Origin: a virus
Lineage: Duplodnaviria > Caudoviricetes
IMG/VR virus record: IMGVR_UViG_3300023174_000175
Location: 1-61,782 of that record
DNA: 61,782 bases
Strand: one strand, 5' to 3'
Shown here: positions 10,073 through 61,782 of the stretch, one piece after another
How positions within the stretch are numbered: position 1 is the stretch's first letter
How the letters are laid out: each line of letters opens with the position of its first letter
Translations under genes and position numbers: made by a program
Notes under the pieces: generated by a model
Databases searched by the model: none
Told to the model about the DNA's origin: nothing
What the model saw: the letters and a program-made list of their open reading frames with translations, nothing else

Positions 10073-10401
10073 TCGTTTTCCTTTTCCTTTTGGAGTTCTT
10101 TAATCAAAGCCCTTTTTTCACGGGCTTTAATTGCTTGAGGTGTTGTTGACAAAAACTCAAAAATTGGTTTTGCAACAATTCCCCTAGTCTTTCTTATCAC
10201 TTTTCGTTGCGGATAGGTAGTACCGCCCCAAATTCCTTGAACATCAGTTTGTACAGCGTACTCCAAGCATTCCTCAAGGAAGTGACATTTTTTGCAAATT
10301 TCCATTGCATCACGGTTTGCTCGTATAAGCGAACCATCTGGAAACCACATCTCTGGGTCAACTTGGGCACAAAGTTGCGACCCATCAAACTTTGGGTACA
10401 A
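10069..10401 (-). CDS. whiB: WhiB-family Fe-S transcription factor
   Basis: CAQVDPEMWFP...CKKC...CLEYA...GIWGG. Confidence 0.95.
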   Translation of the reverse strand: MYPKFDGSQLCAQVDPEMWFPDGSLIRANRDAMEICKKCHFLEECLEYAVQTDVQGIWGGTTYPQRKVIRKTRGIVAKPIFEFLSTTPQAIKAREKRALIKELQKEKENE

Positions 10402-23410: not shown

Positions 23411-23419
23411 AACCGTAGT

Positions 23420-46883: not shown

Positions 46884-47276
46884 TTAGTTAGCCCGTGTAG
46901 CGTTGGCACAATTGACAACGGCTGTAACAACATTTCCGTCTGCTCCAGAAGCAGAAATCAATGAACCGACAACATACTTTGTGGTATCAGTAGTTGCAAG
47001 AGCAACTGCTTTACCTGTAGCACCAGTGCCAATTGCACTTGGTAGAGTAATCGCCGCACCAGCAACGATTTTGGTTCCACCAACAATTAGAACTTCTGCT
47101 TCCTGACCTGAAAGTGGAGCATTCTGAAGAACGCCAACAGGTACATCTGTAGCGGCCGCAATAGCAATTGCCTGACCACTGGAGTTCAACTTAACAAAGT
47201 TGTACTGTAAAGCGGAAAGGTCTGCACCTGCAACAAGTGTTATCTTTACGCTGTAATTACTGAATTCGTATGCCAT
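46884..47276 (-). CDS. Capsid decoration/cement protein (DUF2190-like)
   Basis: AGADLS..QY.FVK, GVLQNAP..G; upstream of the MCP. Confidence 0.8.
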   Translation of the reverse strand: MAYEFSNYSVKITLVAGADLSALQYNFVKLNSSGQAIAIAAATDVPVGVLQNAPLSGQEAEVLIVGGTKIVAGAAITLPSAIGTGATGKAVALATTDTTKYVVGSLISASGADGNVVTAVVNCANATRAN

Positions 47277-47282
47277 GGTTAA

Positions 47283-48050
47283 TTAAGCACCTTTCTCGTT
47301 TAGGTATTGTGCGTACAATGACGGTTCGGCTGATGCAATGTCAGCAAAAGCCTGTTCAAATGTTTTTGCTTCACCAGCAGAAACCATGGACTTAGCCATT
47401 GATTCCATCTGTGAGAAAGCGTTTCCCGTATTGGCTGAAGTGCGACCAATTTCGGCAAAAATGTTTGCTGATTCAGCCTGAGCATTAACACTCTCAAGAA
47501 CTGCTTCAACAGATTTTGCTAGAACTTCATCGGTTTCTGCCAACTTACGAAGGGCAGGTCCAACATTGTCTGCATCTAGTGAAAGGTGTGACCATGAGCG
47601 AGCCTTAGCAACTGCTTCTGCATCTGCACGGGCATCACGCTCTGACTTTAAAACGGCTTCAACTTCTGTAGCCTTAGCAACTGCTTCTTCCGCTTGCTTA
47701 CGCAAAACTTCAAAAGCCTTCTGCACAGGCTCTGGGGCTGACTTAATTACTTCATCGGTTTCATCAGCAGGAGCCTCAACTTCTGCGTCAACCTCTGTTG
47801 CTTCCTCAAGTTCAGCAATTCTTTCTTCTGCCTTTTGAAGCAAATCCATTGCTTCTTCAAGACGGGTTTCAATGGTTTCCGACATTGATTCCTCCTGTTT
47901 GATAACGGATGATTCAAGGAGTTCGTTAACAGATTCAGTAGAAGCAGATTTCATAACCAACCAACCATCATGCAAATGTGCAGGACGGTCAACGCCACTG
48001 GTTTCCTCAATGTCGAGATTAACCATTTTGCGAGTTGTTGTACGAGCCAT
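47283..48050 (-). CDS. Scaffold protein with N-terminal E-x-S-x-VD-x-PA segment
   Basis: LDIEETSGVDRPAH, then an acidic coiled coil; FAEIG. Confidence 0.8.
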   Translation of the reverse strand: MARTTTRKMVNLDIEETSGVDRPAHLHDGWLVMKSASTESVNELLESSVIKQEESMSETIETRLEEAMDLLQKAEERIAELEEATEVDAEVEAPADETDEVIKSAPEPVQKAFEVLRKQAEEAVAKATEVEAVLKSERDARADAEAVAKARSWSHLSLDADNVGPALRKLAETDEVLAKSVEAVLESVNAQAESANIFAEIGRTSANTGNAFSQMESMAKSMVSAGEAKTFEQAFADIASAEPSLYAQYLNEKGA

Positions 48051-48153
48051 AACATCCTCTGTTCTGAACATGCAGAATTAACTGCAAATCTTGACTTGCT
48101 CAAAATTAACACAAATCAATTACACTGAGGGTTTGACTTTGGGCGTGTCGGAT

Positions 48154-48348
48154 TTAACGACTTTGATAAAAACCAGTAGATGAACCGTGTTTGGAAACTT
48201 TGGTTGCACCCGTAATTACTCTTTTGGTTGAACCATTACCAATACGCAAATTCAAAGTAGTTTGATTAGTTACACCAGTAACAATCGCATGATAAACACG
48301 ACCAGATTCACGATAACGAACTGAAGTACCAACTTTAAAAACTTGCAT
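48154..48348 (-). CDS. Hypothetical basic protein
   Basis: TAATG coupling to dps. Confidence 0.6.
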   Translation of the reverse strand: MQVFKVGTSVRYRESGRVYHAIVTGVTNQTTLNLRIGNGSTKRVITGATKVSKHGSSTGFYQSR

Positions 48349-48845
48349 TACATCCCCAAACTAGAACGAAGTTGCCAATCCCATTTTTTGTGCATGTCAA
48401 TGCGTTCAGCAAGAAAATTAGCCACACCCTGCTCATTAGACGAGTTTGCAGAAGTGAAAGCCATGTTTAATGTATTAATAAGTTGAAGGTTTGCCTTCTG
48501 CAAATCTGATGCCATGGAACGGGGGTCATCAGCAGAACCAATGGTGGTTTCTGGCAGGGTTCGGTAAGCAATAAAATCTGACAACTTAAATGGTGCATCA
48601 ACGCCAAGTTTCAACATGTTTTCAGCCATTGGGTCAATTGAACTGTAAACATCTTCATAGATAGATTCAAAAAGTTCGTGGTATTGAGCAAAATCCGAAC
48701 CTTTAACATTCCAATGAAAGCCATGGGCACGAGTGTAAAAAGTGACAACATCAGCCAAGGCTGTACGCAATAACGAGGCAACATCGCCAACGGCTTTATT
48801 TATTGCTCCAAAAGGAACATAATCACTATCGTTAGTCAGAAACAT
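48348..48845 (-). CDS. dps: Dps/ferritin-like protein
   Basis: HGFHWNVKG..F...HELF..IY...D..AE; H.K..WQL. Confidence 0.93.
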   Translation of the reverse strand: MFLTNDSDYVPFGAINKAVGDVASLLRTALADVVTFYTRAHGFHWNVKGSDFAQYHELFESIYEDVYSSIDPMAENMLKLGVDAPFKLSDFIAYRTLPETTIGSADDPRSMASDLQKANLQLINTLNMAFTSANSSNEQGVANFLAERIDMHKKWDWQLRSSLGM

Positions 48846-49635
48846 CTTCGTCAGAAACCTTTACATCTTTTTTGGGCTTCTTCTTTTGCCCACCCATAAC
48901 AGTATCCACATGAACAGTGTTCACTGTAGGACCCGACACGGTAGATGAACTGTCTTCTTTAGCAACTGGCAAATCAACCTCAAGACGCTGGGCACGACCA
49001 CCAATCGAATAACCCATCAACTTTCCAGCCTTAACCATTTCCCAAGCCCATGGTTCCCAAACAACGCCAAGAAAAACAGTGTCCTTGGGGAAAGTAACAT
49101 CTTCCATAGTTCCATCAGATTTTTGCATAGGAACTGAAACTTCGTAAGGCCATGCCATGACCTCAACCCATTCACCAGCAACAACATCTTTATTGTGCTG
49201 AAGTCGGATACGGCGGTCATCTTTACGCACATAATCCCAAACCGATTTCTGCAACTCAGCAGAATCCGTCCACTCACCATGAGCATCAACACGGTCAGGA
49301 ACATACATTGGACCTAGGGTGTATCGGTTTTCACTAACAGCCTTGGAAACCAATGACATTTGCGGAGTTTCATCAATAGAGAATTGGTCATAAAAACCTT
49401 TACCGTTATGAGCCAATGATGAAGCCTCAAAAATGTCTATTTCGCCATCTTCAAAAGTTTCCCACTCATTTACAGGAGCAATCATTTGTCCTTCTTCAAA
49501 GTTTTTATTAAAATCTTGAGAAATTTCTTCATAGGCTTGTTTGAACTCAGCCGTATCTGGTAATCCTGCTTGAGCCAATGTGTTACCGTAAGCAACAGCA
49601 TTAGTAATGACATTTAATTGCTGAACTGTAATCAT
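48832..49635 (-). CDS. XkdF-like prohead serine protease
   Basis: YVPDRVDAHGE, LQH, W..VK.GKLMGYSIGG. Confidence 0.85.
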   Translation of the reverse strand: MITVQQLNVITNAVAYGNTLAQAGLPDTAEFKQAYEEISQDFNKNFEEGQMIAPVNEWETFEDGEIDIFEASSLAHNGKGFYDQFSIDETPQMSLVSKAVSENRYTLGPMYVPDRVDAHGEWTDSAELQKSVWDYVRKDDRRIRLQHNKDVVAGEWVEVMAWPYEVSVPMQKSDGTMEDVTFPKDTVFLGVVWEPWAWEMVKAGKLMGYSIGGRAQRLEVDLPVAKEDSSSTVSGPTVNTVHVDTVMGGQKKKPKKDVKVSDEDVSD

Positions 49636-51716
49636 TATGCATGTCCCTTCTCAATAAAATTATCCCACATACCTTGATTAAACACAACTTTGGGAGTGTT
49701 TTTACCGCCTTGTGCAATTACAGTAGCGTTAAAACCTTCAGTGCTAACCAATTTCCATTCATCAAAAGCGTTTGCTTCAAAAGCCAAAGGAGCCGTAAGA
49801 CTAACACCTTTATGAATTTTACGGATGACACTATGGGGAACATAACGGCGTTCAGTTTTAGCCCTGTTATTAGAACGCCGAATTGCTTCACTAACAGAAA
49901 CTGTCGCGTAAAAGGCTTTAACAACATAACCCTTTTGCCGAGCAGTATCAATCTTGCCAAGAAGATTTTCAAATTTGCCATTGCCCGTACTGTCATAAAC
50001 AATGTCTGCTCTTTTAGCCAAACCTGCTTTTTCAATTGCCTTAGCCAACATGGAAGATTCTTCATGAGTGTGAGTGCCAGCACCCTTAAAATCAGCCATA
50101 GAGGTGCTGGTAGACATTCTTTTCATTTCGGGAATCATAGTTTTAACCATGTCAGCATTAACCTGAACAGCATCACCGCTAGAAATAAAAGCATCCGTAG
50201 CAGGGTCAGTGATTGGTTGTGGAACTCCCACTTTACCTTTACGAATCATTGTGGTTTTACCTGAAGCAGGTCCACCACCAATTAGATAATAAGTGGGATT
50301 TTTTTGACTCTTAGTTCCATCAACAAAAGTATGCACAATTTCCTCATGAAGTTTTAATCTTTCAGGAGTAAAAACATACTTTAATTGCCCATTGGTAGTT
50401 GTGTAATTAGGGTTAGGCATCAAATGATGCCAAGCAGAATCGCTAGGAGTAATTGATTCAGAACCACCCCACTCTTTCCCAGTGATTGCTTCAGGAATAC
50501 CGTACTTGTAGCCACCAGTTGCTTCAGGAGTAGAAGTGCCACGCTTAACACCACCATAATTACCGCCACCCTCAGCAGTGTCACGATAAATTTTATTAGA
50601 ACCTGCTTCTGGAGCATGCAAACCTTCACCAGCAGGTGATTTAGCCCATGACCCGTGAGTTGACTGGTCATGCTGACCAGCAAGGTGTTTCAATAACGGA
50701 ATAGTGCTTAATTGAGGAATAGGGTCAACTAACAAACGGCGGTATCTGCGTTTACTACCATTTAAAGCATCAAAAAATCCTGCATCCGTAACAATTTGGT
50801 CAGCATAAACACCATTAGTTAGTGAATCAGAACCTTTACGAAAATTATCCAACAAACCATGTAATTCTTCATGCCGTTTCATAACAGCAGGAATGGCAAA
50901 AGGATTTGAATTAGTGCGTTTCAACTCACGACCAGAATCGTAACCATCATTGTAGGACAAACGAACAGTTTTTTTGCTCAAAATTTTAGTGATTGCTTGA
51001 AAATCCGAACCACTAACAGAAGAGCCGTGTGCCCAATCCCCGTGAGTTGACTGGTCATGTTTGCCCTGCATGTGTTTAGACATGCCATTTAATAAATTTT
51101 CAGGAATTATCCAAAACTTGCATAAAGCACAATGGTCAATTTGCCCCTCAACAATTTCACAACCTTGACCACCTTCATAAAATACACAATTTGCACACAT
51201 TAAACCTTCAGACATGAAAGGATTTTCTTCCATGTAATGTGCCCCGTTAGCACCGCAACCTTTATTGAACTTACCAACGGTTTCGGTTAAAGATTCCAAA
51301 AATTCATAAATTGCAGATTGGGTTTCATTTAGTGCATCTTCAGGTTCAGGGTCATTCATGTTCATTGGGGCATCTTTAGCCACCGTATCGAATTTTAAAG
51401 TGTAACCATCAACAGTCAAAATAGTGGTTTTAGAAACAGATTCAGGATAACCCAACTCAACATTGACCGTATCAACCACATCAGAAGGGATGCCATCAAA
51501 CGCTTTATTTACAGGAACATTGTTTTCAACGCCAACTTCAATAACAGCACGATTCCACTCATCGCCTTTATGTCCATGGTCTAAACCACGAACCAGCAAC
51601 TCCGTTGTGACAAGATGGTGGGCTTGAACTTTTACAGGGTCAGCAACATCAGCATGCAAAGACTTATGTAACACTTCCAAATCAGCATTACTTAAATTAG
51701 TTAAATCAAATGACAT
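49635..51716 (-). CDS. Two-tag polyprotein: HiPIP-like Cys domain, short module, zeta-toxin/AAA_33 kinase
   Basis: CANCVFY..C..V.G.I..CALCKFW; GGGPASGKTT, VNAD..K, HEESS, YDST. Confidence 0.8.
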   Translation of the reverse strand: MSFDLTNLSNADLEVLHKSLHADVADPVKVQAHHLVTTELLVRGLDHGHKGDEWNRAVIEVGVENNVPVNKAFDGIPSDVVDTVNVELGYPESVSKTTILTVDGYTLKFDTVAKDAPMNMNDPEPEDALNETQSAIYEFLESLTETVGKFNKGCGANGAHYMEENPFMSEGLMCANCVFYEGGQGCEIVEGQIDHCALCKFWIIPENLLNGMSKHMQGKHDQSTHGDWAHGSSVSGSDFQAITKILSKKTVRLSYNDGYDSGRELKRTNSNPFAIPAVMKRHEELHGLLDNFRKGSDSLTNGVYADQIVTDAGFFDALNGSKRRYRRLLVDPIPQLSTIPLLKHLAGQHDQSTHGSWAKSPAGEGLHAPEAGSNKIYRDTAEGGGNYGGVKRGTSTPEATGGYKYGIPEAITGKEWGGSESITPSDSAWHHLMPNPNYTTTNGQLKYVFTPERLKLHEEIVHTFVDGTKSQKNPTYYLIGGGPASGKTTMIRKGKVGVPQPITDPATDAFISSGDAVQVNADMVKTMIPEMKRMSTSTSMADFKGAGTHTHEESSMLAKAIEKAGLAKRADIVYDSTGNGKFENLLGKIDTARQKGYVVKAFYATVSVSEAIRRSNNRAKTERRYVPHSVIRKIHKGVSLTAPLAFEANAFDEWKLVSTEGFNATVIAQGGKNTPKVVFNQGMWDNFIEKGHA

Positions 51717-51753
51717 TTGAACTCCTTCCCGACAGAATAGCAAACAAAATTAA

Positions 51754-51858
51754 CTATTCAGGTTTTGTCGGCTCAAGCAATTCTCTCGGTTTCATTCGTT
51801 CAGGAATACAATCAGGGTCAATAGGGTCAATGTTTTCAACTATTAAATAATCATCCAT
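51754..51858 (-). CDS. 34-aa peptide following the HEIAH module
   Basis: MDDYLIVENIDPIDPDCIPER...; overlaps the upstream stop. Confidence 0.45.
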   Translation of the reverse strand: MDDYLIVENIDPIDPDCIPERMKPRELLEPTKPE

Positions 51859-54553
51859 TTAAAACACCTTCTTGTACATAGAAATTACGCAAACTAGCAC
51901 CCAACTCGGAACCCCAATAATGGTCAGCAAGCGTAACCAAATTTTCCGCAAACTCAACACCGTGGGCCGCATGAGGATTTTCTTCACTAATAGCCGTGGC
52001 ATAATGAGCAATTTCATGCAAAAGAGTACTTTCGCTAAAACTGTAATGTGAATCTATTTTGAACTCGCTTGTGGTTTTTTCGCGACCAGTAGTGCGATTA
52101 ATAATCACGCCATAGGCATAAGACCCAGATAAAGTCATTGAATTGTTAGTTTTAATTTCTAAAGTACTTCTTAACTGATTTCCACTACCAAAAGTTTCAA
52201 CAAACCAAGGGTCATCAATAACAGTCGTAATGTACTTTTTAATTCCAGACAAAGTGCCATTTAAATTTTTTGCACCCAAGTCAGAAACAATAAATTTATG
52301 TGACTCTCTAGCCCAAACAGTGTGGGCTTTTCTGTAATCTTTAAACGCTCTTACATAATCATCTCGTGATTCAAAATCACTGCTTTTTGGTGCTTGTGGT
52401 TGATTTTTTCGCATTTCTTCGTAATGGTCTTTACCCATTACGCTTTCTTTAAACAAGGCTTCAGCACCATAAATTTTATTTTGCAAAGGGTCGTGTTTTT
52501 GTTTTCGTAAATCCAGCATTTCTCTGGTCGTCAAACTGTGACCACCTTTAACAGCATTTAAATGCGTACCGTGTGCCCAATTGCCATGACTGGACTGGTC
52601 ATGCTGACCTAAAAAATGTTTAAAAAAATCAGAATCAACAGGAACCTGAACAATTACTGAGGCTTCGGCAACTTCCCGTAAATTTTTTCCGCCCAATCCA
52701 TAATTTCCTCGTCCGTCATCTGATTCAATGGTTTCGGGGATGAGGCTATGTTTATGACTTCCTTTTTCGACTGTTCCACCAGTACCTCCTGTTTGAATCT
52801 CATCAAAGTTTACAACATCCCAAATACTAATTTGGTTACGCCTTCTACCCAACGAAATTGCTTGCTTCTTACTAACAACTTTGTCCGTAACATCCAAATG
52901 AACTTGTTGCTGTTCTTTTGGTATTTCAACCGTTACACCATTAATTGTTTTTGTTGTTTCATGCCACACACCAAGATAGGCACGACCAGAACCCAACTCT
53001 GATTTGTTCTTAATCAAGAACGCACCAAGAATTTTGGCTCCTTTTTTCTCGTTAAAAAAATCTGATGCCGTGACTACAGTGCCAAACTTGTCACTGTTTC
53101 GAGATACCATGTAGCCATCTGGAGGCAGTGAGCCGTCTGTTAACTTGATTGATAAACCACCGTTTTCGGCTACTTGCGACAGCACATCATGAACAACTTC
53201 TGGTGCAACATGGCTGTTGAACCTGCGTCCGTGAGTTGATTGGTCGTGTTGACCTTGAAGGTGTTTCTCAACCTCGGTTGATTTAATCTTAGCCCGTAAA
53301 ATAGCAATGTCAAACCGCAAAGCCTTAGAAAACGCACTATTTTTATTATTCTCACCCAATGCAATTGGGGCAACGCCAACTACATCATTCCAAGCAAGAA
53401 CCACATCAATTAATTCTTTAGCAGGAACATTTACCCGAATAACAGGCATTTTCACAGAACTGTCACGCAAACTCATGGACAAAATAGCGGCCCACCTATG
53501 ATGACCGTCAATTACATAATTATCGCTAGACACAATAATTCTAGATTTGTCGTCATCTTTAATGCCTTTTTCTTCCAATGACAACATAATTTGAGCAGAT
53601 TTTGAAGCAGAAATTTCCGATTGAATTGGGTGCAACGCTTGTGGGCTTAAATCAACTCGTTTGTAAGAAATTCCCTCTTTGTCCATCTCAGCAAGAAATT
53701 CATTTTTTAAACCAGAGGGAACTTGTGGCATTTTATCCCTAGGAATGCCCATGTTGTCGCCCGTGTAAAAATGCGTTCCAACAATTTCAAGGTTAGTTAA
53801 ATCAGGATTATCTTGGCGTTTAGCCATTTGCTCCATAAAGAAATGAACATCTAATGGACTAATTTTACCTTGTTTGCCAGCAACTACATTATCAATTGCA
53901 TCGGCAACTGGGTATTGATAATCAGATTTTGTTCCACTATGCCCAGCCCAATTTCCATGTGTAGATTGGTCGTGTTGTCCTGCAAGGTGCTTTTGAACTG
54001 ATTGCGGATAATAAGACCATTCGTACAAAGAATTACCGTCAGTGTAAATTTCATTGGCATGAACTGTGGTGTGCAAAATGTCGTAATCACCAAAACGAGC
54101 AGTTACACTACTTTCGCCATGTAATTTGGCGTATTCTTCGGAAATAGTAACCCAATCACCAGCATTAACTTTAGTAACGCCTTTGGGTACAGCACGATAA
54201 ATGGTCACATGAGCATCGGGTTTATTACGAATACTTACAAGCAAATCATGGATTTTTTTATCTTCAGCCCTATTGTTGCCACCGTGCCCATAAATTCTGG
54301 CACCATCAGAATCATAAACATTTTTTGGATAAATGTTTCCATTTCCAGTTAAATCGTATGCAGGGGCACCATCTTCGGGTTCTGGAGGACGGTGACTCAT
54401 TTGATAATCAGTTTCACTGTTAGCACCGCCATGTGCCCAATCGCCGTGTGAACTCTGGTCATGCTGACCTTGCAAATGTTTTTCAACTTTCACACCATGT
54501 TTAACACCCAAATCGGGGTAAACCACATCAAAAGTTACATCATCTAAAATCAT
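51851..54553 (-). CDS. Four-tag polyprotein: ART-like?, ParB/Srx-like, unknown, HExxH peptidase
   Basis: IYRAVP..GDWVT..E; IVSSDNYVIDGHHRW; YLGVW..NQISIWD; LLHEIAH..HGVEF. Confidence 0.8.
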   Translation of the reverse strand: MILDDVTFDVVYPDLGVKHGVKVEKHLQGQHDQSSHGDWAHGGANSETDYQMSHRPPEPEDGAPAYDLTGNGNIYPKNVYDSDGARIYGHGGNNRAEDKKIHDLLVSIRNKPDAHVTIYRAVPKGVTKVNAGDWVTISEEYAKLHGESSVTARFGDYDILHTTVHANEIYTDGNSLYEWSYYPQSVQKHLAGQHDQSTHGNWAGHSGTKSDYQYPVADAIDNVVAGKQGKISPLDVHFFMEQMAKRQDNPDLTNLEIVGTHFYTGDNMGIPRDKMPQVPSGLKNEFLAEMDKEGISYKRVDLSPQALHPIQSEISASKSAQIMLSLEEKGIKDDDKSRIIVSSDNYVIDGHHRWAAILSMSLRDSSVKMPVIRVNVPAKELIDVVLAWNDVVGVAPIALGENNKNSAFSKALRFDIAILRAKIKSTEVEKHLQGQHDQSTHGRRFNSHVAPEVVHDVLSQVAENGGLSIKLTDGSLPPDGYMVSRNSDKFGTVVTASDFFNEKKGAKILGAFLIKNKSELGSGRAYLGVWHETTKTINGVTVEIPKEQQQVHLDVTDKVVSKKQAISLGRRRNQISIWDVVNFDEIQTGGTGGTVEKGSHKHSLIPETIESDDGRGNYGLGGKNLREVAEASVIVQVPVDSDFFKHFLGQHDQSSHGNWAHGTHLNAVKGGHSLTTREMLDLRKQKHDPLQNKIYGAEALFKESVMGKDHYEEMRKNQPQAPKSSDFESRDDYVRAFKDYRKAHTVWARESHKFIVSDLGAKNLNGTLSGIKKYITTVIDDPWFVETFGSGNQLRSTLEIKTNNSMTLSGSYAYGVIINRTTGREKTTSEFKIDSHYSFSESTLLHEIAHYATAISEENPHAAHGVEFAENLVTLADHYWGSELGASLRNFYVQEGVLNG

Positions 54554-55395
54554 GAAAATACCCCATTGCCATCAGTTTTGTAAGAAAACAAATCCAAAAC
54601 ATTAGCCTGTTTATCTAAGCCCTCATTGCGTAACAAGTATTTCCAAGTTTCCAAAAATGGTAAATTATGACCGCCATCCCCTGCATTGCCTTCCACCCAA
54701 TTGCCTTCAAGAATGTGGGAAATTTCATGCAACAAAACAAATTGGCTAACACCTTTAGGTTTGTAAATTAAAACAGGAAGAGTTGCATTGTGTAAAGGAT
54801 GATTTTCGTCTGCAACATTGCCACGAGTGACTCCAGCCTCAATACCATCAACTAAATAATGACCGTCTTCATCTGGCCACAATTGGTAAACTCTGTCACC
54901 ATAACCGTATTTGGCAAATACTTCATCAACATAAGTTGCAATGTCTTTTCGATTGGTAAAAATGCGTCCTTGTCCAACTGCTTGTAAAGGTGCCGAATCA
55001 AGGCATAAACCTGAAGCAAACTCAATTTGTTTATCATCAGGGGCACCTGTTGGAACAACATCGCTCCAATCCGTACCATCTTTCCAAGGTATTGCCACAC
55101 CAGTCAAATTATTTGGTTTATGAACAACGCCACCATTTTTAGCCCAATTACCATGTGAACTCTGGTCGTGCTGTCCTGTCAAATGTTTAGACAAATCAAA
55201 TTGCAAATAACTATTTACAGCAATTTTTAATGATTCTGGCATACTTCTAAATGCTGGTAAATGCTGAAAATTTTCCCAATTACCACCTATTGCAATAAGA
55301 AATGCTTTTGGCTCAAGTGGCAAATCCCAACTTGCACTTTTAATCCAATCAGAATTAATTAATGAATCATCAACATTTATTTTTAATTTTTTCAT
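54550..55395 (-). CDS. Tagged HExxH (SprT-like) metallopeptidase
   Basis: Tag then VLLHEISH...GHNLPF; probable start at 55395 (TAATG). Confidence 0.75.
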   Translation of the reverse strand: MKKLKINVDDSLINSDWIKSASWDLPLEPKAFLIAIGGNWENFQHLPAFRSMPESLKIAVNSYLQFDLSKHLTGQHDQSSHGNWAKNGGVVHKPNNLTGVAIPWKDGTDWSDVVPTGAPDDKQIEFASGLCLDSAPLQAVGQGRIFTNRKDIATYVDEVFAKYGYGDRVYQLWPDEDGHYLVDGIEAGVTRGNVADENHPLHNATLPVLIYKPKGVSQFVLLHEISHILEGNWVEGNAGDGGHNLPFLETWKYLLRNEGLDKQANVLDLFSYKTDGNGVFS

Positions 55396-56750
55396 TATTT
55401 TGGATTCAATTCTTTCCAAGGCACAACTCGTCCTATCATTGGTTTTCCTAACAACACTGTTTCAAATTCATGAAAACAACCCATACCAGTACCAGCCATT
55501 CCAAGAATTTGAGATGCGTTTACTACAGACTCAACTACGCCACCAACTGTTCTTTTAGTATCTAACGGGTCACTGTAGTCAAATTCAACAGCAAAATTTC
55601 TTGCTGTTTCTTTACTAAGACTCCAAGAAGAAGCAGGTCTTGTTTGCACATCAAAAATTGATACAGAATCCGCAGAACCATTCAAAGATGCAACATCACT
55701 AACACCACGATAAACTGTAACTTCTTGAACTCCTTGTTTTGCTAAAAAATCTTGTGTTAAATCATAAGTGGCTTGCACATAAGATTGTAAAAGTTTTCCA
55801 TGTTTGCTTAAAATGCTTGTAACTTTACTTTGTGTTTCATCGGTCATAGGCCAATCTGAACTATCCGACAAATTAAATTGTTTTTTTACTGCTTCTTGAA
55901 CCGCAAGACTGGCAGGATAGTCGTCATTTGATGTTTGTGCCCACAATTTTACAAGAGTACTACAAGAAGCATTGCGAACCATTGTTTCAGCCTGTGGAGT
56001 GCCTTGCATAGCCCATTTAACATAATTTTTTTCTACAGAATTGTGCATCCGAACTGCTCGTGCAATTTCAGCAGGAGTGGCTTTACCATCTTTAATACCC
56101 AATTTGTCAGTGATTTCGTAATCTAAAACATCAGTCCAGTGATGAACTTCTACCTCACCACTATCCAATTCGGCAACCAGATTTATTCCATTTACTAAAT
56201 CGCCATCACCATTGTCGTCATAATACTCTGTTTGTGCAGGAGTAATAGCAATTTGCAATTCCTTCACATACTGTTTAGTAAAATCTTCAGTAGCAACAGG
56301 ACGAGCAAAAAATACTGCATCCACATTAAAATCAAGCAAATCTTGTGTTGAAACATTGAGCATTGCATCAGATTTTGCTATTGCTTCTGCTGTTTTTGAT
56401 TTAAGTTCTCTTTCAGCAATACTGCCACCTAACCATGGCGTAAAATTTGCAATTCGCGGTGCCCCATTGCCATTGCCATTTAAATCCAATTCCTCAACGG
56501 GAACTCCGTCAAAACTTTCAATACCTAAATCAATCCCGTATTGCGTTAATTGCGAAAGAACTAATTTTTCCATTCCATTTGTCGGCGTAACAACTACTTC
56601 GGCTACATTATCAGCCCAATTACCATGACTGGATTGGTCATGCAAACCTTCTAAATGCTTAATCAGAACAACATCAGAAGATTCAACTACCCCAATAAAC
56701 TTGGCGAGCCGTGCAATGCGTGACACAAAACCTCCTGAAATACTAGACAA
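55395..56750 (-). CDS. Tagged R-S-ExE ADP-ribosyltransferase-like protein
   Basis: VYRG...ASSWS...ARNFA...EFETVL; paralog of 1401-2507. Confidence 0.72.
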   Translation of the reverse strand: MSSISGGFVSRIARLAKFIGVVESSDVVLIKHLEGLHDQSSHGNWADNVAEVVVTPTNGMEKLVLSQLTQYGIDLGIESFDGVPVEELDLNGNGNGAPRIANFTPWLGGSIAERELKSKTAEAIAKSDAMLNVSTQDLLDFNVDAVFFARPVATEDFTKQYVKELQIAITPAQTEYYDDNGDGDLVNGINLVAELDSGEVEVHHWTDVLDYEITDKLGIKDGKATPAEIARAVRMHNSVEKNYVKWAMQGTPQAETMVRNASCSTLVKLWAQTSNDDYPASLAVQEAVKKQFNLSDSSDWPMTDETQSKVTSILSKHGKLLQSYVQATYDLTQDFLAKQGVQEVTVYRGVSDVASLNGSADSVSIFDVQTRPASSWSLSKETARNFAVEFDYSDPLDTKRTVGGVVESVVNASQILGMAGTGMGCFHEFETVLLGKPMIGRVVPWKELNPK

Positions 56751-56788
56751 GAATACCCCAGAAGCATTACCTCAAAAGGTCAACTCGC

Positions 56789-58015
56789 TTAACCCATTGC
56801 TGGTTTATTTGGGTCTTTTTGATTAATAAATGGTCGGTCATTAAATAACCAATAGAACTTGTTACCCAAATCTTGACCTTTAGATTTAGCAACTTCGTCT
56901 GAAACAACATGAGGTTCAATCATTTTCACCTCAACTACCGTAAATTCTTTATCAGGTTGACGAGTCCATAAAGTAGCCGTTCTTTCCCAATCATTACCGC
57001 TATTTCTATCCAAACTAAAAGTTACATCTTTAGACTCAAAAGCACTCATGTCTTTTGCACCTAAAGCATCAAAAATTTGTTTCTTTTGAGTTTCAGATTT
57101 ATTATCTACCCAACCAGCACCAGTATCGTAAGCAACCCAAGCATCAGGGGTGCCATCAGTCCAAGAAACTTTTCTTGCTATGAGATGATGTCTAGCCCAA
57201 TAAGGCATTTTAACTTTGGTTACACCAACAACTTGAAATTTTCCACTAACAATAACTTCAGAATCTTGTGTGTAATAAGCATTATTACCAAACGCCCAGC
57301 CTTTAGCCCCAGCCTGAATTTTCATCAAAACAGCATTTTGACCTCGCCCACGCTCGGCCGCATACCATTGGGCCGCACCTTGAGAACGAGTAGTAGAAAC
57401 CAAAGGCATGTCAAAAACATCCCCTGTTTTAAGGTCTTTAAAATCTTGTGTGAGTTGGTCATCTTCTGAAGACTGCATGCCACGCCATAACACGGGTTGT
57501 GGTTTACTATTAGTAATTGCTTTTAATAAACCTTTTACTTCATTGCGGTTAGGGGCACCCCAACCACGCTCAAGCATGTATTCCAAATAACCGCCTTTGT
57601 CGTAAGGAGTTTTTGGAACAGGTAAGCCTAAAGCCTGACATGCGTATTTGCGAAATAATTCAACAAATTGAGTGCCGTCAGGTCCGTGTTCCCAAGCCTC
57701 TTGTGCCCTAGCAGTAAACCCACCAGCATTGCGAGGACTTGAAGGAACTGGGTCTAAAGGATTCCATGCATTTATTTCATGTGTAATGGCATCTGCCCAA
57801 TTACCATGAGTTGACTGGTCATGCTGACCAGCAAGATGTTTAGATACACCCTGCATACCCTCATCAAGCCACCACTGAAGAGCATCACCATGAGTATGCC
57901 CAATCAAAGCCCCAAAAGACATTTGGTCATTGTTAGCAAAAGTAATTATTGAATCTTCGGTCAATTCACCATTCCAAGACCATGAACCACCAAATTTAGA
58001 AATAATAGAATTCAT
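56789..58015 (-). CDS. Tagged ADP-ribosyltransferase-like protein
   Basis: LWRGM...LVSTT...LMKIQAGAKG...DSEVIV..KFQV. Confidence 0.7.
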   Translation of the reverse strand: MNSIISKFGGSWSWNGELTEDSIITFANNDQMSFGALIGHTHGDALQWWLDEGMQGVSKHLAGQHDQSTHGNWADAITHEINAWNPLDPVPSSPRNAGGFTARAQEAWEHGPDGTQFVELFRKYACQALGLPVPKTPYDKGGYLEYMLERGWGAPNRNEVKGLLKAITNSKPQPVLWRGMQSSEDDQLTQDFKDLKTGDVFDMPLVSTTRSQGAAQWYAAERGRGQNAVLMKIQAGAKGWAFGNNAYYTQDSEVIVSGKFQVVGVTKVKMPYWARHHLIARKVSWTDGTPDAWVAYDTGAGWVDNKSETQKKQIFDALGAKDMSAFESKDVTFSLDRNSGNDWERTATLWTRQPDKEFTVVEVKMIEPHVVSDEVAKSKGQDLGNKFYWLFNDRPFINQKDPNKPAMG

Positions 58016-58026
58016 TCAACATCAAC

Positions 58027-59580
58027 TCAATCTTTGTAACCGCTGTAAGTAAATGGGGGGTTTGAATCACGCGAATCGGGGTAGTCTAAACCATACTGCA
58101 AAAAATCTGATTGTTCTTGTAACTGAATGTTAGGTTCAACAATTATTTCAATACCAGCCCTTGTTAATTTATTTTTTGTTGTTTGATTAATGGCATCAGA
58201 ATTTTTAATAATAACTTGAGAAACATCTGAAAGTTTTATTCCACCATGAACTTGCGCTTCAACATAACCAGAAACAACATAAGAATAAAATTTATTTTTG
58301 CTACTAACAATTGCATCGTTAGAAGAATTGGTATTAAACATTGCCGTAGGGCGATAACTCCAACTGTCATAAAGACTTCTAACCACAGCATTTGGTGAAT
58401 CTAGCCAAAATCTGTCAGAAGAAATTTTTCCATCACGAACATCAGAAGCGACCCATCCAACTTTAGCCTGACCATCCATAGAATCACCAACCGTTATTGT
58501 TGTTCTATTTTTTGTTTCATCTTTCAAAACAAGACGGACATCACCAAAAATTTCATTCCCGTTGTTTGCAACATAGCCGTAAACTGGACGCTGTTCATCT
58601 GGAGTATCTGTAGGAACCCCAAGAATAGTTTCACGGCGTTCCCTACTGTCTAAATACTTTCCTCTAGCAGAACCCTTACCAATTGATGAAACCTCATAAA
58701 CCGTCTTAAATCTTTCATCTTTAATGAATCGTGCTAAACGAGCCGAAGTCATTTGAATAGTAACTGGTTGTTCAGAAACAATGGTTTTCAAAGTGTCTAA
58801 TTGACTTGCGCCAAATTTATCTAGAACTTGTTTAACGGTTTCACCAGAAGGAAATTTGTATGACTGCAATTTTTTAATTACAAAAGCATTTTCTTTAACC
58901 AACCATGTTTGATACTGTTCATTTGTTATCAAGCCATTGCGTATTAATTGACTTGCAACATTTTTTGTATCACCCAAATCTGTTAAAGGTCTGGGAGCAT
59001 AAAATGTTGGTGTATTTTTATTAGCAGGGTCATCATGCCATGCTTGAACTTTGGCATCGTAAGCATCTATCCATTCTTGTGGCATTTTAGGATAAGCAGG
59101 GTCATTTACGATAGATAGCATTACTGTTGTTTTTCCGTCAAAACCGTAATCGTTACGGATGTAATCTTCTTTGCCAGTTACTGCTTCGTAAGCCTTACGA
59201 GCAAGAAAATAATTTACACCCCAATACTCATCACCTGTAGGGAGTGTTCCGTCAGCCGACAATGGGTATTGATGTAAATTTTCATTAATAACCCCTTTGG
59301 ACTCTCTAGCAATTTGTGTTAAAAATGCGTTAACTGCTGGGTAGTAAGCATTTCCAGCCTGTTCATCATAAACAGGTTTGTCGGAAATAACTCGTGGATT
59401 TAACTGATAAGGCATTTCACCATGTGCCCAGTTACCATGGCTTGATTGGTCATGTTGCCCAGCAAGATGTTTGACCAAACTTAAAGGAGGAACAACAAAA
59501 ATTGTTTTAGCCACAGGTTTATCTAAGCCAAAAGTACAACCAATTTTTTGACCCGAAAACATTGGAGGACTTTGCAACAT
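58027..59580 (-). CDS. Tagged protein with DUF3626-like domain
   Basis: RFKT, RPVYGY, RTTITVGDS, YVEAQVHGG; start uncertain. Confidence 0.75.
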   Translation of the reverse strand: MLQSPPMFSGQKIGCTFGLDKPVAKTIFVVPPLSLVKHLAGQHDQSSHGNWAHGEMPYQLNPRVISDKPVYDEQAGNAYYPAVNAFLTQIARESKGVINENLHQYPLSADGTLPTGDEYWGVNYFLARKAYEAVTGKEDYIRNDYGFDGKTTVMLSIVNDPAYPKMPQEWIDAYDAKVQAWHDDPANKNTPTFYAPRPLTDLGDTKNVASQLIRNGLITNEQYQTWLVKENAFVIKKLQSYKFPSGETVKQVLDKFGASQLDTLKTIVSEQPVTIQMTSARLARFIKDERFKTVYEVSSIGKGSARGKYLDSRERRETILGVPTDTPDEQRPVYGYVANNGNEIFGDVRLVLKDETKNRTTITVGDSMDGQAKVGWVASDVRDGKISSDRFWLDSPNAVVRSLYDSWSYRPTAMFNTNSSNDAIVSSKNKFYSYVVSGYVEAQVHGGIKLSDVSQVIIKNSDAINQTTKNKLTRAGIEIIVEPNIQLQEQSDFLQYGLDYPDSRDSNPPFTYSGYKD

Positions 59581-59586
59581 ACTAAA

Positions 59587-61782
59587 TCACTTCTTCCATT
59601 TGTACTGCATACCCCATTTATCTTCTTTAGCCAAAGCCTGAACAATAGGAATTTCAGACTTACCATCAGTCATAAACCATTCAGCAAACGCTTCAGCATA
59701 ACCCTCGCCAGTATTGCTTCTACCATACGGACTTAACTGATTTTCATGAGCCATTAACATTAAACCTGTAGTTTGTTCGTTTTTGTAACCGCTTCCAGCC
59801 ATTGTTCCATTGCCACCTTTATGGAAAAGGGCATCGTAATTAGTTGCATGACCCCATTCATGAGCCAAAAAGTATTCCATAGCAAAAAATTGTTTGGCAT
59901 TGGCTGAAGGCATCCAACTCTGACGAGCCGTATCTTCATCAGCGTAATGATTCATGTCTTCAGGACGAACAGCAATAATAACTTTGTGAATTGCAGGTTT
60001 TACTAATTCACGAACAGTTCTAAGATTTTTTTCATCAAATACCGTTTTCATTTTTTCTGGTTCAGAAAAATTAACAGTCCAACCTCGTTGCATTTCGGAA
60101 TCATAATCAAAATCATTACTTACAACAATTTTTACTTCAGACATTGGTGACAACGGTGCAATTGTTTGCAAATCATGAACTAAAGCCAACACATCTCGTT
60201 TTTGGTCTTCAGTAATGTTGTCCCTGTTGTCAAAAAAAGTTGCAAAACTAGAACCGTTAATTTTTGATTCATGAACATCAGCGTTTTCAAGTACAAGGTC
60301 ATTTACGCCAAAAGCATGCCTAAAATCAGTTTTTGTTTTAGCCCAGTTGCCGTGGGTGGACTGGTCATGTTGACCTGCAAGATGTTTACTTACATCAGGC
60401 AACTCAATAAAAGAAGGGGGTGGTGTTTTACTAAAAGTATCAGCAATTAAAATACTTGAACCCATAGTTTTAACTAGATTAAAAACACCAGTATCCCAAC
60501 CATACTTTAAAGCCATTTCTTGAACATGAGGCAAAGAGGTTTGTCCAGCCGAAAAAAACCATTCCGCAAAAGCCTCGGCATAAGACTCCATTGTGTTTTC
60601 CATCCCATAAGTAGTTTGTCCTTCTTTTTTCCATTTCCATTCTGATTTGCTTTGAGCAAGATAATTTTTGTATTCATCATGAGCCAACTGGTCATCAACA
60701 AGTTGGCTTTGTGTTCTTTTATCAAGAGCGTGACCCCATTCGTGGGCTAAAACAGACATGATGTAATTTGCTTTTGAATCTGCACGGGCAGGGTCGCCTC
60801 CCCATAAATTATGTTCTTCCTGTATTGCTGTTTCCATACTGAGAACTATTTCGCCTTTACCCAAAGTACAAAAACCTACAACATCAGACAAATGACCTTT
60901 GGCTTTGTAATCTTCCATTTTGCTGTCATCAAATTCAACACGCATTCCTTCAATTGGAAAATGCGTTTGCAATTCGGCAATAGTTTGATAAATAAGTTTT
61001 TTTGTATCATCACTTATTGTTCCATCTACTTCTTCAAAACCAACAAAAACTCTAGGAAATTCACCAGCAACGATAACATCGTGAGCAATGCCCACCAGTG
61101 TTTCATCAGTTATGTCTTGTACTGAGTATTTTGCTTCGCCATGTGCCCAGTTACCGTGGGAACTTTGGTCGTGCTGACCTGCAAGATGCTTCACAATTTC
61201 ACTCCACGATTTACCTTCAGAAGTCAAATTTGATGAATGAGAAATAGTTATTCCAGATTGTTGACGAGCAAACTCCAACATTGCTGAAGCAATGCCAAGT
61301 CTTCTGTAACCTTTAGAAACATGAATAGTGTTAATTGTTGCTGAATCAGATTTTGTTGATTCCCAAGTTAATTTATCCATTGACGAAGGATTTATTCCTT
61401 GATAAGAACTATTTTCCCAATCAAAAGGACTTGTTTTAACTACAGGATTAAAAGATACATAACCACTTACTTGATTCCACACATTTGGATTACCAGCGTC
61501 AATTTCTTGATAAAATTCAAAATTGTATTTAGCACCATTTTTATCAGTGTAAATAGCAGTTGCTTTAGTAATGACAGATTTTTGTTTACCATCGTCACTT
61601 GTCCAAACATCTTTATTGCTTTTAACGGAACTAATGTTTGTTGTGCCACCAGCCCAATTGCCGTGGCTGGATTGGTCGTGTTGTCCTGACATGTGTTTGG
61701 TAAAAGCATCAACTACTGTCCAATTACCAACTTTTTGCCATTTATCAAATAGCCCAATTTTACTTGTTGTGCCATTTTTCTG
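59587..61782 (-). CDS. Three-tag polyprotein: GNAT acetyltransferase plus two HEWGH zinc metallopeptidases (starts at 253 across the join)
   Basis: HVSKGYRRLGIASAML; two copies of AHEWGHA...YG..N..E.YAEAFAEWF. Confidence 0.85.
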   Translation of the reverse strand, partial: QKNGTTSKIGLFDKWQKVGNWTVVDAFTKHMSGQHDQSSHGNWAGGTTNISSVKSNKDVWTSDDGKQKSVITKATAIYTDKNGAKYNFEFYQEIDAGNPNVWNQVSGYVSFNPVVKTSPFDWENSSYQGINPSSMDKLTWESTKSDSATINTIHVSKGYRRLGIASAMLEFARQQSGITISHSSNLTSEGKSWSEIVKHLAGQHDQSSHGNWAHGEAKYSVQDITDETLVGIAHDVIVAGEFPRVFVGFEEVDGTISDDTKKLIYQTIAELQTHFPIEGMRVEFDDSKMEDYKAKGHLSDVVGFCTLGKGEIVLSMETAIQEEHNLWGGDPARADSKANYIMSVLAHEWGHALDKRTQSQLVDDQLAHDEYKNYLAQSKSEWKWKKEGQTTYGMENTMESYAEAFAEWFFSAGQTSLPHVQEMALKYGWDTGVFNLVKTMGSSILIADTFSKTPPPSFIELPDVSKHLAGQHDQSTHGNWAKTKTDFRHAFGVNDLVLENADVHESKINGSSFATFFDNRDNITEDQKRDVLALVHDLQTIAPLSPMSEVKIVVSNDFDYDSEMQRGWTVNFSEPEKMKTVFDEKNLRTVRELVKPAIHKVIIAVRPEDMNHYADEDTARQSWMPSANAKQFFAMEYFLAHEWGHATNYDALFHKGGNGTMAGSGYKNEQTTGLMLMAHENQLSPYGRSNTGEGYAEAFAEWFMTDGKSEIPIVQALAKEDKWGMQYKWKK

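Follow-up and report, generated by a model that had tools for sequence, protein, structure and literature searches.

To our knowledge, how tailed phages choose the non-structural proteins of their capsids is understood mainly for T4 and P1. The locus described here raises this question in a concrete form: why does one short peptide stand before modules of unrelated kinds in consecutive genes of a phage head operon, and what does it do there?

Organization of the tagged array

The window, i.e., the whole stretch of 61,782 nucleotides that was analysed, holds a phage record of roughly 61.6 kb and ends in a terminal repeat, positions 61632-61782 matching its first 151 bases with three mismatches. 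One tagged ORF (ORF4) is cut by the window ends and was read across the presumed circular junction. All features given below lie on the minus strand.

The head operon is anchored upstream by a Mu-type portal protein (5900-7399; PF06074, E 3.3e-39), followed by a MuF or SPP1 gp7-like minor head protein (4887-5894; PF04233, E 1.9e-9; phrog_16493/3517), the stop of which overlaps the start of the first tagged ORF by 4 nt. The downstream anchor is an XkdF-type (S78_2) prohead serine protease (48832-49635; PF14550, E 4.4e-12) in which the motifs DAH and GYSIGG are conserved and the C-terminal tail is basic (alignment A3). Using a regular expression and an ORF scan, the tag was detected in all ten consecutive ORFs between MuF and protease, genes with overlapping stops and starts. 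A scaffold-like ORF (47283-48071), a minor capsid ORF of 130 aa (46884-47276) and a lambda-E-like major capsid protein (MCP; 45893-46870) are untagged. The genome in the window is siphovirus-like. We infer an actinobacterial host because a WhiB-like gene is present and the nearest cultured MuF proteins are from Arthrobacter phages.

ORF1 (2500-4890, 796 aa) carries tags at aa 12 (tag 1, 4813-4857), aa 334 (tag 2, 3847-3891) and aa 579 (tag 3, 3112-3156) and has a C-terminal ADP-ribosyltransferase (ART; PF03496, E 8.9e-12). ORF2 (1401-2507, 368 aa; tag 4 at aa 35, 2361-2405) contains a DRAT-like ART module (PF07357, E 2.9e-6) and ORF3 (256-1404, 382 aa; tag 5 at aa 23, 1294-1338) a weak DUF3626-like module (PF12294, E 5e-4, below cut-off; phrog_8314). 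The N-terminal part of ORF4 (1-253), consisting of a leader and the first tag at aa 63 (tag 6, 23-67, again at 61654-61698 in the terminal overlap), continues in 59587-61782, giving 765 aa in total with further tags at aa 232 (tag 7, 61147-61191) and aa 500 (tag 8, 60343-60387), a weak GNAT-like match and two HExxH (ATLF-like) modules. ORF5 (58027-59580, 517 aa; tag 9 at aa 37, 59428-59472) has a DUF3626-like module (Pfam, PHROGs), ORF6 (56789-58015, 408 aa; tag 10 at aa 59, 57797-57841) a module without known family, ORF7 (55395-56750, 451 aa; tag 11 at aa 31, 56616-56660) a module of the same cluster as that of ORF2, and ORF8 (54550-55419, 289 aa; tag 12 at aa 78, 55144-55188) an HExxH module.

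ORF9 (51851-54553, 900 aa) is tagged at aa 25 (tag 13, 54437-54481), aa 188 (tag 14, 53948-53992), aa 430 (tag 15, 53222-53266) and aa 645 (tag 16, 52577-52621). It comprises a ParB C-terminal-like module (phrog_2579, PHROG E 7.8e-35), two unknown modules and an HExxH (SprT/TIGR04338-like) module. The last ORF, ORF10 (49635-51743, 702 aa, likely start 51716), carries tags at aa 223 (tag 17, 51033-51077) and aa 352 (tag 18, 50646-50690), and consists of an N-terminal domain without tag, a Cys-rich stretch and a zeta-toxin-like kinase (PF06414, E 7.5e-19). The N-terminal domain (51330-51716; alignment A2), a conserved orphan here called c5N, was found in 27 of 30 related loci holding the protease; it always opens the last ORF ahead of the protease and is never preceded by the tag. 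Its model had a pLDDT of 81, and a fold search gave no match.

In short, the array encodes ten polypeptides with 18 modules: ARTs, zincin-like peptidases, ParB-like, zeta-like kinase, DUF3626-like and unknown ones. Two to four modules each are found in ORF1, ORF4, ORF9 and ORF10, and the other six ORFs are single-module. The original prediction had named the MuF and XkdF-type flanks correctly. Its module list stands for the ART, zeta, ParB-like and four clear HExxH modules; the DUF3626 and GNAT assignments are, like the ATLF-like and SprT-like matches, below Pfam cut-offs. Its statement that every tag precedes a distinct module was not fully borne out, the DUF3626-like, HExxH and DRAT-like clusters each occurring twice in the window.

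Sequence and copies of the tag

The window copies follow the consensus φxKHLxGQHDQS[ST]HGNWA, a 16-residue peptide with 18 unique copies. A back-translated DNA pattern gave 18 matches in the window and none in 100 shuffles; these represent 17 strict copies, because two of the matches are one copy duplicated in the terminal repeat. The remaining copy, tag 15 (KHLQGQHDQSTHGRRF), was recovered by the ORF scan and is degenerate, ending in HGRRF rather than HGNWA. When a profile built from 99 tags was run over all six frames of the window, 19 matches of 41.9 to 52.1 bits were obtained, being the 18 unique copies and the duplicate; tag 15 scored 41.9 bits, and no tag was found elsewhere, the next best match scoring 5.5 bits. 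The predicted 18 copies in ten genes, and their absence from all other ORFs of the window, were thus both borne out.

In its broader form, the pattern before each module reads φxKH(x2-4)H[DE]Qx[ST]HGxWA. The residues K, H, H, D, Q, H, G and W show no or hardly any variation, nine of the 16 positions are invariant, D may be replaced by E or N, and long and short variants occur together in a single phage. Identity between copies is 0.82 at the amino-acid level, 0.72 at the nucleotide level and 0.54 at third positions of invariant residues. Selection thus acts on the peptide, because synonymous sites vary freely among copies.

Tags are spaced by a median of 234 aa, giving one tag per domain-sized module. 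The first tag lies at a median position of aa 29 (158 proteins) and at aa 12-223 in the window, where leaders before N-terminal tags measure 11-77 aa and 8 of 18 tags are internal. The last tag is always followed by at least 37 aa, so that the tag is never C-terminal.

Distribution of the tag and related loci

The tag was found in at least 226 stretches of IMG/VR, with 349 confirmed. It also occurs in 942 representatives of protein clusters, some of them polyproteins that bear as many as 20 copies. Among the latter are a giant protein of 7059 aa with 20 tags, a protein of 2201 aa made of nine tag-ART repeats and one of 4085 aa (P0143) that matches the Pfam family ART-PolyVal (PF18760). A scan of 185,579 cellular genomes (596 Gb) yielded one match, out of frame and chance-like, and the tag was effectively absent from the cultured phages checked. 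Judging from this distribution, the tag defines a phage lineage.

Searches of Pfam and NCBIfam gave no model for the tag, and literal strings of the motif did not occur in a literature search, in agreement with the earlier view that the tag is not a recognised family. A PHROG of unknown function (phrog_2859) matches it incidentally, at positions ~266-296 of a 740-position model. The portal-MuF-XkdF neighbourhood expected beforehand was also recovered, the order portal-MuF-array-protease-scaffold-MCP being found in 51 related loci. The observation that would have spoken against the original prediction, a tag common outside head operons or in non-phage proteins, was not made in the cellular and operon scans.

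Of the 117 non-nested ORFs of at least 100 aa that lie between MuF and protease in 21 complete related arrays, 116 were tagged. In the 51 related loci, none of 127 ORFs upstream of the portal carried a tag, nor did the portal itself (0/36), the scaffold (0/21), the MCP (0/15) or ORFs following the scaffold (0/18) or the MCP (0/30). The slot between protease and scaffold is partly occupied (9/20 ORFs tagged), and in one relative a tagged ORF of 169 aa lies immediately after TerL. Fusions were found at both ends of the array: a MuF-tag-module fusion in 5 of 40 MuF ORFs of relatives, and, in 3 of 30 protease ORFs, a tagged module joined to the protease domain, with no tag standing directly ahead of that domain in any of the three.

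The tag as a cassette junction

The same module was found either fused or as its own ORF, and module clusters shift in position and leader. Nine pairs of sequences were compared with the tag as anchor, 45 aa being displayed. In all five pairs with a shared leader, identity stops right after the tag. Near-complete identity begins at the tag in two of the four pairs with a shared module, and the other two are too diverged to show a switch within 45 aa. As far as these alignments indicate, cassettes recombine exactly at the tag.

Discussion

The reading that we prefer is a split polyvalent array of head-packaged effectors, in which the tag is a capsid address, probably a processing site, and a cassette junction; we give it an even chance of being right. 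Under it, we infer that the tagged proteins bind a receptor, are packaged, cut and ejected, and that their modules have targets in the host. The original prediction of a packaging or ejection signal is supported in part; it lacked the link to polyvalent proteins, the cassette junction and the fusions to MuF or protease. The array modules would be made late, together with the head. The tag would act as a common address by which a head component common to all takes the polypeptides into the assembling procapsid, candidate receptors being the protease, the scaffold, the capsid interior and portal/MuF. The XkdF-type protease would then probably cut at or beside the tag, releasing modules of ~25 kDa as with the T4 capsid-targeting sequence (CTS). 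At infection these modules would exit along with the DNA to act on targets in the host. The tag would in addition serve as the crossover point for module swaps between phages, fusions and splits, because it is the only sequence common to all cassettes.

Several observations argue for an address. The tag is naturally fused to MuF and protease, proteins known inside proheads; it is confined to phages and to the head operon, with one copy per module and selection at the peptide level; and it also occurs outside the array, after TerL and in the protease-scaffold slot. Single-module ORFs also keep it, although they would have no need of a mere inter-domain separator. Against an address stand the nine invariant positions in 16 residues, far beyond known prohead-protease sites and unlike any described CTS, the many internal tags and the leaders of 11-77 aa, which depart from a strictly N-terminal CTS, and the pattern of three His and Asp/Glu, which could mean a metal site with a different role. 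Cleavage at the tag would leave the last module unfreed in the protease fusions, because no tag precedes the protease domain.

A further, tentative reading, for which we see clearly less than an even chance, treats the tag as a two-step zip code that docks any downstream protein on a conserved procapsid component and is then cut by the XkdF-type protease, the modules being freed within the head and injected, while it also serves as a universal crossover site for effector trade. If true, this would amount to an integron-like cassette economy for virion cargo among co-infecting phages, and would provide a ready-made tag to load foreign proteins into siphovirus capsids.

Because relatives fuse tagged modules to MuF or protease, a role in protease processing is a serious co-explanation. 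In its exclusive form, the tag would be only a processing site or polyprotein junction, cut by the XkdF protease or by the HExxH peptidases of the array, and capsid entry would occur, e.g., via MuF or protease fusion or co-assembly. The same modules occur interchangeably in fused and in split form, giant polyproteins bear up to 20 tags, and the protease invariably marks the end of the array, the two being fused in some cases, all of which suits this reading. So would the small residues that follow the Trp of the tag (Ala at position 16 in 211/230, Gly at position 18 in 135/231), the HExxH modules in 20 of 21 complete arrays, and the autoprocessing by such peptidases that the available text of Iyer et al. 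(2017; PMC5512222) proposes for polyvalent proteins. However, the one complete array that remains (L275) has no HExxH module at all, single-module ORFs keep the tag (116/117), where removal of a leader of 11-77 aa has no evident reason, a tagged ORF lies outside the array beside TerL, and the motif by far exceeds typical protease sites in length and invariance. We consider processing as the sole role unlikely.

Lower still we place a structural or metal-binding cap (His-His-Asp/Glu-His plus Trp) without a trans-acting head partner. Such a cap might bind Zn or Ni, bind DNA, or seed the formation of an internal protein body, and it would be kept as a junction mainly since recombinants formed there stay in frame and functional. 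The near-invariance of K, H, H, D, Q, H, G and W, the exchange of D for E or N and the change of homology blocks exactly at the tag are in line with such a cap, and the co-occurrence of long and short variants in one phage speaks against a very strict receptor. Yet the modules have unrelated folds, which makes a common intramolecular cap improbable, and both the confinement of the tag from MuF to scaffold and its retention in ORFs point to a head-related role. Moreover, the exact in-register run between tag copies has a median of 9 nt, by itself a poor substrate for homologous recombination.

Finally, it is very improbable that the tagged proteins are late enzymes acting in the infected cell or after lysis rather than virion cargo, with a tag for, e.g., regulation, oligomerization or secretion: phage ART genes are so read in the available text of Kavagutti et al. 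(2019; PMC6802176), where ARTs of freshwater actinophages are proposed as 'Trojan horse' anti-predator toxins, but the genes here are enclosed by MuF and prohead protease, with stops that overlap the next starts, are naturally fused to both, encode the repertoire of polyvalent proteins (ARTs, ParB-like, zincins) and carry a strict pattern that is missing from cellular genomes, so that it mimics no host sorting signal.

Under the preferred reading, that of head-packaged cargo addressed by the tag, one conserved peptide labels every candidate cargo module, from single-domain ORFs up to 7059-aa polyproteins. If it works as proposed, it would explain the loading and resolution of polyvalent proteins, effector repertoires would diversify via exchange at a fixed junction, and an engineering handle for phage protein delivery would be at hand. 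The ART 'toxin' genes of metagenomic actinophages would then be reframed: instead of anti-predator toxins, they would encode effectors that are injected for host takeover or counter-defence.

Comparison with known systems

Accessory proteins are loaded into an HK97-fold shell by short targeting regions in the case of the P1 Dar antirestriction proteins and of encapsulin cargo-loading peptides. The former need dedicated helper proteins and the latter operate without portal or DNA; neither has a motif in common with the tag. In the HK97 protease, the C-terminus serves capsid targeting.

The junction motifs VENN of CdiA and PxxxxDPxGL of Rhs demarcate a variable toxin module and are sites of cassette exchange, the Rhs motif being a cleavage site too. 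Like these, the tag is a short conserved peptide at the module boundary where cassettes swap, and breakpoints coincide with it as expected of a polymorphic-toxin junction motif. In contrast to VENN and PxxxxDPxGL, which occur once per protein, before one C-terminal toxin and in bacterial secretion systems, the tag is repeated and phage-confined, and shares no sequence similarity with them.

In MuF polymorphic toxins, effector domains, including ARTs, reportedly ride on MuF. The window array is not of this type, its MuF being a separate ORF; covalent linkage cannot explain the predicted uptake of nine further polypeptides, which have no MuF domain. Arthrobacter phage Laroye has a homologous MuF and, in gp18, an enzyme attached directly to the XkdF-type protease domain. 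No tag is present (best profile score 1.3 bits), and there is one fused enzyme and no array; as in the 3/30 protease fusions of relatives, cargo is joined to the protease. The head can thus take up cargo that bears no tag, which is a point against the address reading.

The T4 CTS is described in the available text of PMC9026906 as a short address peptide that brings IPI-III and the ART Alt, otherwise unrelated, into the prohead core, is cut off by the prohead protease and lets phages vary the injected cargo. The tag resembles it as a short peptide common to otherwise unrelated proteins, and Alt is a packaged ART. According to the same text, the CTS is strictly N-terminal, 10-19 aa long and weakly conserved, and ends in a gp21 site. 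A propeptide of this type does not fit the tag, 8 of 18 copies being internal; the tag is moreover strongly conserved, occurs one to four times per protein (up to 20 elsewhere) after variable leaders, and does not resemble the CTS in sequence. The phages differ as well, T4 being a myovirus that has a core scaffold and the phage of the window being siphovirus-like and equipped with an XkdF-type protease. For the CTS, packaging and cleavage have been proven; for the tag, both are predicted from sequence.

The closest likeness is to polyvalent proteins, which string unrelated effector domains in one polypeptide, as set out in the available text of Iyer et al. (2017; PMC5512222). There and in that of PMC9503650, packaging in the head and injection are deduced for effectors that are fused to, or encoded next to, MuF, portal or the serine peptidase of capsid processing. 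With these proteins the array shares many unrelated conflict-type domains (ART, zincin-like metallopeptidase, ParB-like), a position beside MuF and portal, and predicted packaging and injection; several domains per polypeptide (2-15 or more), the head-gene context and the domain repertoire were all found. The text of PMC5512222 contains no junction motif, though its supplementary files may show one. Unlike polyvalent proteins, the array is split over ten ORFs, with a 16-aa tag before each module that marks recombination junctions, and it is best read as a split form of polyvalent proteins.

Genome organization and head operon

The window comprises 61,782 bases with a GC content of 41.6%, and is plausibly read as a circle of ~61.6 kb because bases 1-151 are repeated at 61632-61782 with three mismatches (positions 127, 129, and 131). 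This 151-base overlap lies inside the tagged ORF4 and carries one tag, the contig being broken within its repeat-bearing array; ORF4 was read across the junction.

The head operon is encoded on the minus strand. A Mu-type portal (5900-7399) and MuF (4887-5894) are followed by ten tagged ORFs (ORF1 to ORF10, from 4890 through the junction to 49635), which are tightly packed or overlapping, as stated in the original prediction of ten consecutive, mostly overlapping genes between MuF and the protease. Next come an XkdF-type S78_2 prohead protease (48832-49635), an untagged Dps/ferritin-like ORF (48348-48845; PF00210, E 6.5e-14, with weak matches to NCBIfam Dps models), a scaffold-like ORF (47283-48071), a 130-aa minor capsid ORF and, at the end of the operon, a lambda-E-like major capsid protein (MCP). 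The N-terminus of the scaffold-like protein is His-rich and strongly conserved in its alignment (IEETSGVDHPAHLHEGWLVMKS), and DAHGEWT is invariant in the alignment of the protease. The resemblance of this scaffold N-terminus (SGVDHPAHLHEGW) and of the protease DAHGEW to the HGxW of the tag is faint, and was treated as possible chance since the register differs from that of the tag.

The remainder of the window is siphovirus-like, with a WhiB-like regulator gene (10069-10401, minus strand), TerS/TerL, a tape measure protein, and Erf and Gam recombination genes. Two methyltransferase-like genes, one matching a tRNA methyltransferase-like PHROG and one a DNA methyltransferase, are located directly upstream of the portal (7424-9041, minus strand). 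The gene order is unusual in that TerS/TerL (21806-23944) are distant from the portal, with early and regulatory genes in between. The WhiB-like gene, the low GC content, and the occurrence of related MuF proteins in phages of Arthrobacter and Microbacterium point to a low-GC actinobacterium as the probable host.

Tag copies in the window

The sequence KHLxGQHDQS[ST]HGNWA was present in all ten ORFs of the array, in the 18 unique copies originally counted; 17 of these follow the strict pattern and one has a degenerate end (HGRRF). The back-translated DNA pattern gave 18 matches in the window versus none in 100 shuffles, two of these matches being a single copy seen twice in the terminal overlap. 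When a profile built from 99 tags was run against all six frames, tag copies scored 41.9-52.1 bits and the next best match 5.5 bits, which agrees with the claim that within the window the tag is confined to the array. The tag is real and highly non-random.

Identity between copies was 0.82 at the amino-acid level and 0.72 at the nucleotide level, falling to 0.54 when third positions of invariant residues were compared; exact in-register runs had a median length of 9 nt. Because third positions are this variable and exact runs this short, the conserved object is the peptide; a DNA- or RNA-level repeat was ruled out by the synonymous variation between copies. Residues following the tag Trp are small: position 16 is Ala in 211 of 230 tags, and position 18 is Gly in 135 of 231.

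Modules of the array and the c5N domain

Clear family matches were obtained for an ADP-ribosyltransferase (ART), a DRAT-like ART, a zeta-toxin-like kinase, a ParB-C-like domain, and an HEXXH family, and four HExxH motifs occur in a zincin-like context in the window array. The module identities assigned from sequence alone stood for the ARTs, the ParB-like module, the zeta-like kinase, and the four HExxH modules; those of DUF3626 and GNAT had weak matches, which, like those of the ATLF-like and SprT-like modules, remained under Pfam cut-offs. Several modules had no family match. With 10 ORFs, 18 tags, and 5578 aa, the window array exceeds all 21 complete related arrays, that is, those holding both MuF and protease (4-9 ORFs, 6-15 tags). 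AlphaFold2 modeling of the 289-aa ORF8 (leader, tag, and HExxH module; alignment of seven rows) gave a mean pLDDT of 37, unusable for the structure of the tag.

The last ORF before the protease, ORF10, opens with an untagged, conserved domain of ~115 aa, c5N (51330-51716, minus strand), in which His, His-His, Glu, Arg, Asp, and Trp residues are invariant; it was found in 27 of 30 protease-holding loci (L235-L284), always at the start of the last ORF before the protease. Its AlphaFold2 model was confident (pLDDT 81). Foldseek returned no PDB match at E ≤ 0.001 (best 0.94), a wide VIA-align comparison no Z ≥ 5, and the ESM Atlas no usable match; a sequence-profile search of the PDB gave haemoglobin rows only, which were judged spurious. 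Arthrobacter phage Laroye, which has no tag, lacks the domain as well. c5N is an orphan domain accompanying the tag system.

A Cys-rich stretch (CANCVFYEGGxGCE...CALCKFW; ORF10 aa 180-220, ~51080-51200, minus strand) lies just upstream of the first tag of ORF10 and recurs in relatives (L274). It gave the sole cultured-phage match for this region, within a gene of Actinomycetia phage DSL-LC01 annotated 'capsid maturation protease'.

Tag context in related loci

Relatives were analyzed in five records and then in 51 loci with 10-kb flanks, all of them uncultured contigs; tallies refer to coding-strand ORFs, with starts taken from the longest ORFs. The order portal, MuF, tagged ORFs, protease, scaffold, 130-aa ORF, MCP was found in all relatives as far as each locus extended, so that the predicted portal-MuF-XkdF neighborhood was encountered wherever it was reached. 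Among the 51 loci, tags were carried by 194 of 213 ORFs on the MuF-to-protease side, by 9 of 20 in the protease-to-scaffold slot (one of them a Hva1_TUDOR-domain ORF), and, as fusions, by 5 of 40 MuF and 3 of 30 protease ORFs. None were found in portal (0/36), scaffold (0/21), or MCP (0/15) ORFs, and the expectation that the tag is not common outside the head operon was borne out upstream of the portal (0/127) and further downstream (0/48). When non-nested ORFs of 100 aa or more between MuF and protease were counted in the 21 complete arrays, 116 of 117 were tagged.

In one related record (G001), an extra tagged ORF of 169 aa, composed of a short leader, the tag, a Gly/Ser linker, and a module of ~120 aa, is located outside the array, immediately downstream of TerL (L233:7696-8205, minus strand); the window has a gap of only 126 nt at the corresponding place. 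The Dps-like protein was dropped as a candidate tag partner, as two of the five relatives (L231 and L232) lack any ORF of 100 aa or more between protease and scaffold-like gene.

Proteins from six phages were split at their tags and the pieces were clustered. One module family occurred as an internal polyprotein module in one phage and as a separate ORF in another, and one short leader preceded differing modules. In tag-anchored alignments of pairs sharing a leader, identity stopped right after ...HGNWA in 5/5; of four pairs sharing a module, two were nearly identical from KH on and unrelated upstream, and two were too diverged in the displayed stretch. Some relatives have a MuF-tag-module fusion, and in others c5N, tag, and ParB-like module are joined to the protease domain. 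The tag is a cassette boundary.

The closest cultured MuF proteins (43% identity) are those of Arthrobacter phages. In Laroye (L286) the order is portal, MuF with extension, enzyme fused to XkdF protease, scaffold, MCP, and the tag is absent. Laroye gp17, annotated 'head maturation protease', consists of a MuF domain and an extension of ~200 aa; gp18, annotated 'RNA ligase', consists of an XkdF-type protease domain preceded by an N-terminal enzyme domain, which we take to be LigT/2H-like. The public annotations of both look swapped or incomplete. PhiSH19 has a stand-alone, untagged module, and the tag was not found in the 18 kb read of DSL-LC01. In MW202462, a ParB-like gene adjoins the terminase.

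Distribution of the tag

Strict pattern scans used the long form of the tag. At DNA level, this pattern matched at least 226 IMG/VR stretches; a looser peptide pattern matched 587, and 349 of these stood up to confirmation. An exhaustive search with the profile, covering 1.84 billion cluster representatives, yielded 942 proteins at E ≤ 1e-3 and 249 at E ≤ 1e-10, and all ten tagged proteins whose source was looked up were metagenomic. The best matches included polyproteins of 3023 aa with 10 tags, 2201 aa with 9 tags (nine tag-ART units by Pfam), and 7059 aa with 20 tags; a tagged protein of 4085 aa contained four ART-PolyVal domains (Pfam). Over 547 tags in 158 proteins, the median inter-tag distance was 234 aa, the first tag stood at median residue 29, and at least 37 residues followed the last tag in every case. 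A shorter variant, KHxxHDQxxHGxW, exists and occurs together with the long form in single phages.

Among 185,579 bacterial and archaeal species (one genome each, 596 Gb), the strict long pattern matched once, apparently out of frame, in an Arg/His-rich reading frame (~0.07 chance matches expected by our arithmetic), consistent with the claim that the tag is not common in non-phage proteins. A tblastn search of 50,697 phage records with a 25-aa tag segment, a short and therefore weak query with which near-identical tags should nevertheless score, gave nothing at E ≤ 1. Neither a curated family (Pfam, NCBIfam) nor a solved structure matched the tag, and PHROG 2859 covers it incidentally only; a lone Rieske ferredoxin segment matched by the profile among PDB sequences (E 1.5) was dismissed as chance. 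Literal strings of the motif were likewise absent from the 8.4 million texts searched, in line with the initial impression that the tag belongs to no described family; the supplements to Iyer et al. (2017), outside the scope of that search, may bear on priority.

Proposed function of the tag

We give an even chance to a combined role of the tag as address, probable processing site, and exchange junction, with packaging, receptor, cleavage, and ejection all putative. As a first step, the tag would act as an address for each polypeptide. Each polypeptide would need its own tag, we argue, because the tag is kept throughout the array, even where an ORF has a single module preceded by an unrelated leader of 11-77 aa, and also in ORFs outside the array. 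As a second step, the prohead protease would cleave at or near the tag. Cleavage is likely because modules are equivalent whether fused or split, giant proteins have as many as 20 tags, the protease invariably marks the end of the array and is in some cases fused to it, and small residues follow the tag Trp. Complex prediction of a 32-aa tag alignment with protease, scaffold-like protein, and MCP, run twice without controls, scored 0.00 and weighs neither for nor against binding.

That the tag is purely a processing site would account well for the polyproteins, and HExxH peptidases, found in 20 of the 21 complete arrays, are possible enzymes; yet the tag in single-module ORFs is left unexplained and one array lacks any HExxH module, which weakens these peptidases as a universal processing enzyme. 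We regard this explanation as unlikely. A role as metal-binding or structural cap, independent of any head partner, matches the His/Asp pattern of the tag but fits poorly with unrelated module folds and strict confinement to the operon, and appears distinctly less probable. Least probable, by a small step, are late enzymes that stay out of the virion, after the 'Trojan horse' interpretation that Kavagutti et al. (2019, PMC6802176) gave to ARTs of actinophages, since array position and the MuF and protease fusions fit them poorly.

An address role has a parallel in the capsid-targeting sequence of T4, by which unrelated proteins, the ART Alt among them, are loaded before the prohead protease cuts it off (PMC9026906); the likeness lies in a short address common to unrelated proteins. 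For polyvalent proteins, Iyer et al. (2017, PMC5512222) and Iyer et al. (2022, PMC9503650) deduced packaging in the head and injection from their being fused to, or encoded next to, MuF, portal, and the capsid-processing serine peptidase. The array is a split version of these polyvalent proteins, and the new element relative to them is the tag, a lineage-wide, phage-specific junction and candidate address peptide of polyvalent-type cargo arrays for which the proposed mechanism is plausible.
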